A stretch of DNA of 64,000 nucleotides from an uncultured delta proteobacterium (GCA_963743865.1 CAVURG010000006.1:2689638-2753637); one strand, 5' to 3'. Shown: positions 26,340-31,460, numbered from the stretch's first letter. Numbers and translations are program-made. The notes: a model not told the origin generated them from the sequence alone.

Positions 26340-26465
26340 CTGATCTTGGTTAGCGCATGCTGGAAGCGTCTTCAATTGGAAGGTAGTTCTCCGGCGCGAC
26401 ATCGGAGCGCCGTCAGACAACTGAAAAACCGTCAGACAACTGAAAACCGTCAGGCAACTTAATAA

Positions 26466-29388: not shown

Positions 29389-29778
29389 ATGCCAATTTAC
29401 GAATACAAGTGCAACAAATGCGGCGTGTTCGAGGCGATGCAGGGGATCAAGGAATCTGCGCTCAAGAAATGTCCGACGTGCAACAGCAAGGTGGAGCGGC
29501 AGATGTCGCGCGGCTCGTTCATCCTGAAGGGCAGCGGATGGTACGCGACGGACTACGGCAAGAAGAGCAGCCCGAGCAGCACGGACTCGGATTCAACGGC
29601 GTCGCCGTCGACGCCCGCGACCAACGGTAGTACGGCGTCGTCGAACGATTCGCCGGCGAAGTCGGCGGGCGAGTCGAAGCCGGCGTCTGAGTCGAAATCG
29701 GCGTCATCGGAATCGAAAACGTCCTCGCGCTCGAAATCCTCATCCGAAAAATCAGTGTCAGCCAAATCCGCCGACTGA
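29389..29778 (+). CDS. FmdB-family zinc-ribbon protein with Ser-rich acidic tail
   Basis: MPIYEYKCNKCG...CPTCNS zinc ribbon (CxxC-N15-CxxC), followed by a low-complexity S/T/E/K tail. Confidence 0.8.
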   Translation: MPIYEYKCNKCGVFEAMQGIKESALKKCPTCNSKVERQMSRGSFILKGSGWYATDYGKKSSPSSTDSDSTASPSTPATNGSTASSNDSPAKSAGESKPASESKSASSESKTSSRSKSSSEKSVSAKSAD

Positions 29779-29979: not shown

Positions 29980-30300
29980 GTGAAGAAAAGCAGGATCGTC
30001 CTTTGCGGCCTCGCGCTGGCCGGTTGTCTGTGGGCTGGCTCGGCCAAGGCACAGGATCAACCACCAGCGTACATGAATCCAATTCCCAACGGTGGTTATA
30101 TGGTCACGCAACCCGGCGCGCGGCCCTACCAGCCACCGATCTACGTCAAGCCAATACCGAACGGCGGATACATGGTCACGCAACCCGGTGCTCAGCCATA
30201 TGAACCGCCCACGTATATCAGACCCATTCCCGGCGGCGCATTTCAGCCGGGTGTTCCTGGCAGGCGCACGTTTGATCTCCCCGAGGGCGGAGACCACTAA
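29980..30300 (+). CDS. small secreted protein with tandem P/G/Y-rich repeats (PIPNGGYMVTQPGA units)
   Basis: GTG start after GGGGAGG; signal peptide MKKSRIVLCGLALAGCLWAGSAKAQ; 72-bp DNA tandem repeat at 30061..30270 (about 2.9 copies). Confidence 0.6.
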   Translation: MKKSRIVLCGLALAGCLWAGSAKAQDQPPAYMNPIPNGGYMVTQPGARPYQPPIYVKPIPNGGYMVTQPGAQPYEPPTYIRPIPGGAFQPGVPGRRTFDLPEGGDH

Positions 30301-30315
30301 TCACCCGGTTCGACT

Positions 30316-30621
30316 ATGAGCATCCGCCATGCTGCCGCGCTTGCGGTTGTGGGCTGGTATCTGATGCTGGCGCCCAAAACGTTAGACACACCGCTTGCGT
30401 TTGACGAAAGCGCACCATTGAGCAAATGGAGCATCGTCGGCTCCTATGACTCGGCGAGTGATTGCAACGAGGGCAGGAACTATATTCCAAAGGGTTTGTT
30501 GCAACTAGCTAATGGTGAATCTGACGAGGGCAAGAAGAACCAGCTTACGCAGCAGGCGGTTAGCCTCGCAGGAGCTTACCTGTGCATCGCGACCGACGAT
30601 CCGCGCCTCAAGGGGAAGTAA
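30316..30621 (+). CDS. small protein A1 with N-terminal hydrophobic segment, two Cys and a C-terminal CIATDDPRLKGK motif
   Basis: 101 aa; paralog of 30851..31228 (shared RHAAALAxVGWYL N-terminus, W.I..SYD....C..R, LCIATDDPRLKG). Confidence 0.55.
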   Translation: MSIRHAAALAVVGWYLMLAPKTLDTPLAFDESAPLSKWSIVGSYDSASDCNEGRNYIPKGLLQLANGESDEGKKNQLTQQAVSLAGAYLCIATDDPRLKGK

Positions 30622-30623
30622 CG

Positions 30624-30854
30624 ATGGGAGACAAAATTAATTGCGTAGTCGTCAACAAACGACCGGTGGGGCCGCTGATATTCGGCGCAATAAAGGACGC
30701 TCTCTCGGACGCCAAAATCCGATTCACTCATGATTCTCTTGAGGATGCATTCCTGTTCTTCATCAGTGCCGATTACTTCCCGAAGGCGCGCGCAGTTTTC
30801 GACAAACTGAAGAACGATGGCAAAATTGATAATTTCGAGGTCAAGGAGAAGTGA
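30624..30854 (+). CDS. small cytoplasmic-type protein B (77 aa), unknown function
   Basis: Internal Met of ORF 30582..30854, placed 2 nt after the A1 stop, with a 4-nt overlap onto A2. Confidence 0.45.
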   Translation: MGDKINCVVVNKRPVGPLIFGAIKDALSDAKIRFTHDSLEDAFLFFISADYFPKARAVFDKLKNDGKIDNFEVKEK

Positions 30855-31228
30855 TCCCCCGTCATGCAGCCGCGCTCGCGCTTGTGGGCTGGTATCTGAT
30901 TGTGCCGCCGCGAGGGATCAAATCGAATGGGGTGCTGCTCCAGCCCGACATAAAGAGGCTGGAAGAAGCCATCCAGAACGGTACCGCTGAGGTAGCCCCC
31001 GATCCAACACAGCCTTACTCAGATTGGAAGATTATGTCGTCGTACGATACCGGGGGGCAGTGCGAGCAAGAGAGGAGCAAGTACCATAAGATTGCGACTT
31101 ACGCGAAGGAGAGGGAATATCGCGATGCGAAAGGCCAACCTCTCTCGGATCAGATCAAGATTTCTACCGAGCAATACGAGTTTGCGCTTTGCATCGCGAC
31201 CGACGATCCGCGCCTAAAAGGAGACTAA
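30851..31228 (+). CDS. small protein A2, paralog of A1
   Basis: 125 aa; same N-terminal segment and the C-terminal FALCIATDDPRLKGD. Confidence 0.55.
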   Translation: MIPRHAAALALVGWYLIVPPRGIKSNGVLLQPDIKRLEEAIQNGTAEVAPDPTQPYSDWKIMSSYDTGGQCEQERSKYHKIATYAKEREYRDAKGQPLSDQIKISTEQYEFALCIATDDPRLKGD

Positions 31229-31232
31229 TACC

Positions 31233-31460
31233 ATGGGAGCCTGTAAAATATGTGAAAGGCCGAAAGCGGATGTTTGCCTGCGTGATTACGATGGACCCGG
31301 GGAGGCGTACGCAGGCGGAAAGGCAACTGGTCCCGTCACTGGACAACTAGAAACCTGCGATGACTGCCACAAGGATATCGAGGATTCTTGCCGCCCAAAG
31401 CATAACACCGCCGCTAGCAAGAAAAACGACTTGCTTTTGACGCGTCCCGGTCGCCCTTAA
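31233..31460 (+). CDS. small Cys-rich protein (6 Cys: CKIC..C..CDDC..C), zinc-ribbon-like
   Basis: 75-aa ORF lying 4 nt after the A2 stop. Confidence 0.45.
   Translation: MGACKICERPKADVCLRDYDGPGEAYAGGKATGPVTGQLETCDDCHKDIEDSCRPKHNTAASKKNDLLLTRPGRP

Follow-up and report, generated by a model that had tools for sequence, protein, structure and literature searches.

A 64,000-nucleotide (nt) stretch of the genome of an uncultured delta proteobacterium (GCA_963743865.1 CAVURG010000006.1:2689638-2753637), referred to here as the window, carries two small genes, A1 and A2. We identify them as members of a very large and previously undescribed protein family that is nearly restricted to the Binataceae, abundant uncultured soil bacteria. 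Judged by their sequences, A1 and A2 are intact, true paralogues. Their likeness is far above chance, with three blocks that are invariant or nearly so in alignments of 30 and 122 homologues. Our best guess at what they do, held with about even confidence, is that they are functional paralogues acting as exported two-Cys binding modules within a recombining repertoire.

The paralogy had been proposed in an earlier account of the window (the sequence-only reading), at the positions and on the plus strand given in Table 1, and BLASTP bears it out with 35% identity (E=8e-21). The alignment contains gaps of 21 and 3 residues, which agree with the 24-residue insertion described for A2, and the N-terminal, central (W...SYD...C) and C-terminal (CIATDDPRLKG) blocks read as that account gave them. 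The likeness of the ends extends to the DNA, with 83% identity over 58 nt between the N-blocks (30317-30374 and 30852-30909) and 86% over 42 nt between the C-blocks (30580-30621 and 31187-31228). Against the family profile A1 scores 122 bits and A2 scores 111 bits. The N-terminus of A1 is fixed by an in-frame TAA located six codons upstream of its ATG at 30316, and translation cannot start at M17, since its conservation reaches just 80% and A2 has Ile in its place. Across the family, 167 members have the Gly of the GWYL motif at residue 13, and the others are mostly over-extended open reading frame (ORF) calls. Two doubts that the sequence-only reading had raised about itself can be laid to rest, as database searches did not place the C-terminal motif in a housekeeping domain and neither A1 nor A2 is a duplication remnant. 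A third family copy was sought within the window and none was found.

A word-indexed search with A1 retrieved 171 relatives, every one of which is unnamed or labelled 'hypothetical'. In a profile search of 1.84 billion cluster representatives, 4,853 proteins reached E<=1e-3, and 2,607 of these also reached E<=1e-10; with family clusters counted at 50% identity, the family comprises at least 4,853 clusters. We confirmed 259 loci in species-representative genomes, nearly all of them from Candidatus Binataceae/Binatus or from 'uncultured delta proteobacterium' MFD metagenome-assembled genomes (MAGs). The copies are both dispersed and arranged in tandem: up to four separate loci per genome are found among the best 80 loci, and two to five copies per locus occur in 30 of 81 loci and, in a larger set, in 49 of 168. 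Most arrays consist of family copies placed back to back with nothing in between, and the gene following a tandem copy starts 0-13 nt past its stop codon.

In the alignments of 30 and 122 members, the N-terminus is near-invariant (M-x-x-R-H-A-A-A-L-A-L-V-G-W-Y-L-M-x-P-P), the central block reads A-P-L-S-x-W-x4-S-F-D-(T/S)-A-x2-C and the C-terminus reads C-I-A-T-D-D-P-R-L-K-G-(K/N). The stretches between the blocks differ in sequence and length among members, and the middles of paralogues are only ~20% identical. Family genes are also generally richer in AT-ending codons than neighbouring housekeeping genes. No match for A1 was found in Pfam or NCBIfam at E<=1; A2 had no Pfam match, its sole NCBIfam match was a 12-bit chance match, and a Pfam scan of 30 members one by one gave single chance matches only. 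A sequence-profile search of the PDB returned 0 matches at E<=10, and literature searches on the family motifs found nothing.

Structure prediction with AlphaFold2 (AF2) yielded models of A1 (predicted local distance difference test, pLDDT, 89; predicted template modelling score, pTM, 0.73) and of A2 (pLDDT 89.8, pTM 0.77) that have the same core. In these models residues 1-13 are unstructured and are followed by strand 1 (WYLM(L/V)), strand 2 (W-x-I-x-x-S), two helices, the first of which begins at the first Cys, strand 3 with the second Cys, and a one-turn helix over P-R-L-K. The layout of A1 is thus leader (MSIRHAAALAVVG), strand 1 (WYLML), strand 2 (WSIVGS), two-helix hairpin, strand 3 (YLCIA) and DDPRLKGK tail, and in A2 a further beta-hairpin and helix (residues ~21-50) are predicted to separate strand 1 from strand 2. 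The models suggest a mini-domain of ~100 residues in which the GWYLM, W...S(F/Y)D and xCIAT blocks would form a three-stranded sheet, and this sheet would carry a two-helix hairpin that is variable in length and sequence. The conserved sheet and the DDPRLK tail may serve as a common scaffold or docking face. Foldseek found no match for the models in the PDB (best E 1.2) or in BFVD (best E 0.016 with TM<0.45).

In the predicted fold, a disulfide probably links the first Cys, with which helix 1 begins, to the second, in the last strand. That the Cys pair is conserved, as had been noted for A1 and A2, holds for the family at large, in which both Cys are invariant across the 30 and 122 aligned members. 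Of 229 single-domain members, 195 (85%) contain two Cys and no more, a further 14 contain four or six, and the Cys count is odd in the other 20, so that two, four or six Cys are found in 209 of the 229. These counts, together with the existence of relatives that bear signal peptides, point to a disulfide-stabilised extracytoplasmic domain as the best reading, as originally suggested.

Several lines of sequence evidence argue for export of the family proteins. The relative P0129 begins with a classical signal peptide of ~35 residues followed by three domains, each of which starts from (G)WYLM.PP and lacks RHAAALAL, and in two-domain proteins the RHAAALALV leader is present on the first domain only. 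A 230-amino-acid (aa) member on soil contig L082 reads MNPRHAAALALVG + CFLTASLVSAGTALAG + GWYLMEPP, which is a signal of normal length with an ALA|G site before the same strand. A search with P0129 for signal-peptide-bearing relatives gave one further protein only. The common N-terminus resembles Sec (class I) signals in having a basic n-region (K/R, R4, H5) followed by an uninterrupted hydrophobic stretch, in standing on the first domain only, and in being replaced or extended by a canonical signal in some relatives. In the n-region, conservation is 84% for R4 and 97% for H5, and position 2 is often K; the h-region, AAALALVGWYLM(V/L), falls within the ~7-15 residues of Sec signals, and the mean Kyte-Doolittle hydropathy of consensus residues 6-18 is ~2.0 by our own arithmetic. 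The last five residues of the h-region belong to the folded domain, both in the AF2 models and in the multi-domain relatives. We infer that the invariant 12-residue N-terminus (M-x-x-R-H-A-A-A-L-A-L-V) and the hydrophobic first strand would together form an unusually short Sec-type export signal, and that the domain would work in the periplasm or outside the cell.

Signals of other kinds were also sought in the family. There is no lipoprotein lipobox, as no Cys precedes the central block in A1, A2 or the consensus, and no Tat twin-arginine motif, as a single Arg is followed by His (R-H-A-A-A). A type IV pilin or class III signal does not fit, given that only W-Y-L-M is hydrophobic after G13, x-P-P comes next and there is no Glu at +5. 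For a double-glycine leader, as in certain bacteriocins and in precursors of ribosomally synthesised and post-translationally modified peptides, no GG motif was found, nor, in 81 loci, a conserved neighbour of any kind, such as a C39-peptidase ABC exporter or a modification enzyme. The DDPRLK motif is kept in the internal domains of fused proteins and is therefore part of the domain, and not a sorting tag that needs a free C-terminus.

The repertoire would change by tandem duplication and loss and, on the evidence of two mosaics involving long contigs, also by homologous exchange with break points in the two end blocks. The first mosaic is a segment of the window that spans the C-block of A1, the intervening ORF orf76 and the N-block of A2 (Table 1). 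On contigs L082, L083 and L084, which are three independent assemblies, this segment lies between family members of 230 and 141 aa in an otherwise unrelated neighbourhood. Comparison of 7.2 kb of L082 with the 64-kb window gave no other match beyond short (39-59 nt) family end-block matches. In the second mosaic, two contigs of one MAG (L050 and L070, 953 and 254 kb) have only the body of a family gene in common, with 91.8% identity over 255 nt by BLAST; between the blocks identity is ~96%, but it falls off sharply within the N-block on one side and at the C-block Cys codon on the other, and the two contigs show no relationship in the flanking DNA. Of the syntenic loci L071 and L081, L071 has one extra whole tandem copy. 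The MFD contigs, which have Flye-style names and megabase lengths, are presumably long-read assemblies. The end blocks seem to act as joints for the swapping of gene segments.

Conservation at the nucleotide level is confined to these two end blocks and does not extend to the central block. We compared codons in 107 coding sequences at positions where two members have the same amino acid, and found that the same codon is used in 58% of cases in the N-block (29% expected) and 60% in the C-block (38% expected), compared with 37.6% in the central block (35.7% expected) and 36% in the variable middle (35% expected). The codons are specific to their positions: Y21 is TAT in 74% of cases, whereas flanking genes use TAC in 68%; D100 is GAC (85%) beside D101 as GAT (81%); A13 is GCC (80%) beside A14 as GCG (92%); and L15 is CTC (90%). 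We propose that exchange through the end blocks would also explain their synonymous conservation. Part of the constraint on the C-block may stem from a Shine-Dalgarno position, with the last codons (AAGGRRAAR) sitting before the next gene; in A1 the final codons, AAGGGGAAG, are purine-rich and lie 2-10 nt ahead of the next start codon. The last codons of family genes (CTC AAG GGN/GAA AAR, encoding L-K-G/E-K; 30607-30621 and 31214-31228 in the window) are likewise purine-rich and Shine-Dalgarno-like. RNA structure was rejected as the cause of the synonymous conservation (mean z +0.3 and +0.5; no Rfam match), as was local gene conversion between tandem copies, given that pairs from the same locus are no more alike than pairs from different genomes.

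In the reading that we favour, the variable hairpin would set the binding specificity of each paralogue, and a genome would hold a repertoire of such modules. Our guess is that the modules might bind or mask envelope components, or incoming agents that target the envelope, namely phage, bacteriocin or effector proteins. We guess at an envelope-protective role because copies are found on a phage and beside a primase-type mobile element. The phage copy is an isolated gene for a canonical 109-aa member, present in one phage represented by two IMG/VR contigs (L088 4535-4864, equivalent to L087 2624-2953). It sits between genes for a DnaB-like helicase and the small terminase subunit (TerS), that is, between the replication and packaging modules; portal, prohead-protease and HNH genes confirm the phage identity, and a metallopeptidase gene is also present. 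No homologue was found in cultured phages or in plasmids. The gene for the three-domain P0129 (L169 5001-5915 / L170 4183-5097), a protein seen on at least 25 contigs, lies between ilvC and genes for HTH_17 (excisionase-like) and Prim-Pol/PriCT_1/DnaB_C proteins, and is therefore at or inside an integrated mobile element.

A bolder version, which we regard as rather unlikely, holds that the end blocks are kept identical in DNA because they act as homology handles for cassette exchange in Binataceae and in at least one of their phages. Dozens of exported two-Cys modules would then trade their variable hairpins and, now and then, a passenger ORF such as orf76, giving the population as a whole a repertoire of binders that protect the envelope. 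This repertoire would be analogous to antigenic-variation families, but in a free-living soil bacterium. The 12-residue leader could also be read by a lineage-specific processing or sorting enzyme.

The A1/A2 family is itself uncharacterised, and among known kinds it is best filed with the multi-copy, recombining families of variable exported proteins. Like Neisseria Opa and pilE/pilS, Helicobacter Bab/Hop and Anaplasma Msp2/P44, it is present in many copies per genome. As in families of the Opa/Bab/Msp2 type, conserved 5' and 3' coding blocks surround a variable core, the break points of two mosaics seem to fall in the conserved blocks, and nucleotide-level conservation is confined to them; in Neisseria pilin, a conserved Cys-containing block likewise borders the variable part. 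There are also clear differences. The family has no sequence or fold relationship to these proteins, its host is a free-living soil bacterium and not a pathogen facing adaptive immunity, its orthologues are under purifying selection, and its tandem copies show no concerted evolution. Moreover, every copy is a complete ORF with its own start codon and leader, with no silent cassettes and no single expression site. No simple-sequence tracts of the kind associated with phase variation were seen in or before A1 or A2.

Several points weigh against the reading of A1 and A2 as exported modules of a recombining binding repertoire. The leader is far shorter than normal Sec signals, with a fixed 12 residues before the mature fold, and it is almost invariant over thousands of members, whereas Sec signals normally drift. 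Candidate cleavage sites, ALA|L (8-10) and LVG|W (11-13), fall within the hydrophobic stretch, and no canonical small-x-small site follows it, Pro-Pro being next. Only two mosaic cases involve long contigs. Block-bounded matches also occur among JGI and other short metagenome contigs (L106/L151/L110), which we set aside as possible assembly chimeras: assemblers can mis-join at repeats of ~55 nt, and these mosaics were not counted because the contigs are short and the conserved blocks of ~55 nt could give chimeric joins. Tandem neighbours, being no more alike than copies in different genomes, argue against frequent local gene conversion, and the synonymous conservation could have a cause other than recombination. 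Phage-borne copies come from one lineage only among 2.9 million viral contigs, and the binding-repertoire function is guessed solely from anatomy.

The features of the leader bear on an alternative that we consider possible, if on the whole unlikely, in which the N-terminus is an uncleaved anchor and the proteins are periplasmic envelope components tethered to the inner membrane, structural or chaperone-like, with redundant paralogues. Pro-Pro in place of a cleavage motif after the hydrophobic stretch would suit such an anchor, the leader is invariant, which suggests that it functions within the mature protein, and orthologues are under purifying selection. However, ~12-13 hydrophobic residues are short for a membrane span, and five of them (GWYLM) are confidently modelled as a strand of the domain and are kept in internal domains that cannot anchor. 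Copy number also varies between close relatives, which would be odd for a core component.

The sequence-only reading had seen in A1 and A2 a diversifying effector or ligand family. We think it distinctly doubtful that these are secreted effectors or ligands in which an arms race keeps the middle under positive (diversifying) selection to this day. In its favour, the middles of paralogues are ~20% identical between invariant ends, one copy is phage-borne, and in syntenic Binatus loci the housekeeping flanks are ~90% identical and the family genes have diverged faster than these. Yet in the closest orthologous pairs the ratio of nonsynonymous to synonymous differences per site (pN/pS) is ~0.15-0.5 in the variable middle, and omega in close orthologous pairs is ~0.14-0.5 (Jukes-Cantor correction by hand). 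These orthologues are under purifying selection, and ongoing diversifying selection is unsupported. The corresponding rate ratio (dN/dS) for A1 against A2, which had been suggested as a check, is uninformative in the middle because this region is saturated (pS 0.72). No secretion system, receptor or other cognate partner gene is conserved beside family members in 81 loci. Clustering the neighbour ORFs of these loci gave the family itself, an antisense shadow of it (see below) and, for one orthologous group, rpsB-tsf housekeeping synteny. This group of family genes adjoins rpsB-tsf-frr in Binatus spp. (L036, L047, L051, L060, L067, L071 and L081), where the flanks are ~90% identical between species and the family genes <88%.

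It is quite improbable that the family consists of small cytoplasmic proteins, with an N-terminus that is no more than the region of the first strand and two Cys that bind metal or act in redox chemistry. AF2 does put residues 14-18 in the sheet, and the leader does not reach the length of a textbook signal peptide, but P0129 and the 230-aa member on L082 have canonical signal peptides before the same domain and internal domains drop the leader. Furthermore, two distant Cys without a His/Cys cluster make no metal site, and the even-Cys rule holds.

A1, orf76, A2 and orf75 are tightly packed (gaps of 2, -4 and 4 nt), and orf75 is the last gene of this apparent four-gene unit (Table 1). The four-gene stretch (~30300-31350) has a GC content of 52-55%, compared with 60-70% in its flanks, which carry yggS-proC-yggT genes and dehydrogenase and hydantoinase genes. 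Neither orf76, which belongs to one cluster of three sequences among 5.8 billion clusters, nor orf75, a singleton cluster, has a Pfam, NCBIfam, PADLOC or PHROG match, and PADLOC and PHROGs scans of A1, A2, orf76, orf75 and the upstream ORF showed nothing of note. Both were considered as partner genes of the family and rejected, having no homologue in 81 related loci. The Cys of orf75 (C4/C7 and C42/C45, plus C15 and C53) give it the look of a zinc ribbon, and it appears translationally coupled to A2. The product of orf76 is 96% identical to that of L082 5001-5231, with approximately three non-synonymous and four synonymous differences counted by eye. At both of these otherwise unrelated loci orf76 is wedged between two different family members, and it looks like a passenger of end-block exchange.

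Table 1. Positions in the window of A1, A2, their conserved parts and the adjoining features.
Feature	Position	Strand	Description
A1	30316..30621	+	101-aa family member; ORF, exact protein on record P0001
A1 N-terminal block (M..RHAAALAVVGWYLMLAP)	30316..30375	+	fixed 12-residue leader and first strand; from alignments
A1 Cys50 codon	30463..30465	+	first invariant Cys, start of helix 1; sequence, alignment, AF2 model
A1 C-terminal block (CIATDDPRLKGK + stop)	30583..30621	+	holds second invariant Cys (30583-30585)
A2	30851..31228	+	125-aa family member, GTG start; ORF, exact protein on record P0094
A2 Cys71 codon	31061..31063	+	first invariant Cys; sequence, alignment
A2 C-terminal block (CIATDDPRLKGD + stop)	31190..31228	+	second invariant Cys at 31190-31192
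Mosaic segment (A1 C-block + orf76 + A2 N-block)	30583..30909	+	95.7% DNA identity to soil contigs L082/L083/L084
orf76	30624..30854	+	76-aa ORFan, not family; starts 2 nt past A1 stop, TGA overlaps A2 GTG
orf75	31233..31460	+	75-aa Cys-rich ORF (CxxC ... CxxC), not family; starts 4 nt past A2 stop

The close packing of the four genes, and a common segment whose break points in conserved blocks resemble orphan-module exchange, could be taken to mean that these are toxin-immunity or bacteriocin-immunity cassettes, with A1 and A2 as small secreted toxins and orf76 and orf75 as immunity proteins. We judge this very unlikely. On L082, orf76 is near-identical beside wholly different members (230 and 141 aa) and therefore co-varies with neither neighbour, which is not how a cassette behaves; the lack of homologues of orf76 and orf75 at the other 81 loci, the arrays with nothing between copies and the PADLOC result also speak against it. 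Orphan periplasmic immunity gene arrays, such as those of the Bacteroidales acquired interbacterial defence clusters, offer a partial likeness, in that the family proteins are small and probably periplasmic and are encoded in tandem arrays of variable copy number, sometimes on mobile elements. Unlike those arrays, which mix unrelated families, we see here a single family with invariant termini that has no homology to any known immunity family, and neither a recombinase nor a toxin gene is associated with its loci.

That the ORFs are accidents of non-coding DNA repeats or of an RNA element is effectively refuted: although synonymous sites in the blocks are conserved and an antisense ORF recurs in 52 loci, nucleotide conservation coincides exactly with the coding sequence, from ATG to stop codon, and drops to ~0 bits beyond it, a 3-nt periodicity is seen within it, third codon positions being the least conserved, the protein sequence of the central block is kept while its synonymous sites are at random expectation, intact ORFs occur by the thousand, the fold predictions are confident, and there is neither excess RNA stability nor an Rfam match. 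The antisense ORF (...QPTSASAAAWR...), which lies on the reverse strand of the N-block in 52 of 81 loci and clusters across loci, was considered as a gene and rejected, as it is only a shadow of the conserved N-block in GC-rich DNA.

Other features were observed upstream in the window. The ORF directly before A1, at 29980-30300, encodes 106 aa. Its N-terminus is of the lipoprotein type (LAGC), and a 24-residue repeat (PIPNGGYMVTQPGA...) occurs in it two to three times in tandem, seen in the DNA as a 72-nt repeat at 30058-30201; the ORF has a single companion in its 90% cluster and no family assignment. At 29389-29778 lies a gene for a zinc-ribbon protein of the FmdB type (CxxC_CxxC_SSSS), which has a long tail rich in Ser, Thr and Ala and a sub-threshold match to the NCBIfam 'RPWMISH' domain. 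A unit of ~19 nt, GTCAGRCAACTGAAAA(A/C), forms three tandem repeats at 26412-26464, ending 2 nt before the start of a maf-like gene (26466). The same unit is found at L085 3763-3797 and L086 2669-2703, just after a histidine-kinase gene and ~130 nt upstream of P0002, the closest homologue of A1 (65% identity), in a locus otherwise different from the window; a search of the rest of the window and of the other 84 loci gave no further copy. These repeats may be a regulator binding array. A tRNA or integration site was considered for an 84-nt match near 26.4 kb and rejected, as there is no tRNA and the match is the 19-nt tandem repeat itself.

The family to which A1 and A2 belong is among the largest lineage-specific gene expansions of the Binataceae, and it is without a name, a domain model or a structural relative. 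It deserves a domain model, so that its members are no longer annotated as unrelated hypothetical proteins. Two of its features are of wider interest. One is a minimal leader, 12 residues long and invariant, that overlaps with strand 1 of the mature fold. The other is the synonymous conservation of the ends only, with break points in those same ends, which would be a rare case of cassette-type recombination in a non-pathogen. If the reading of an exported repertoire is true, the family would mark how Binataceae deal with their surroundings at the cell envelope.

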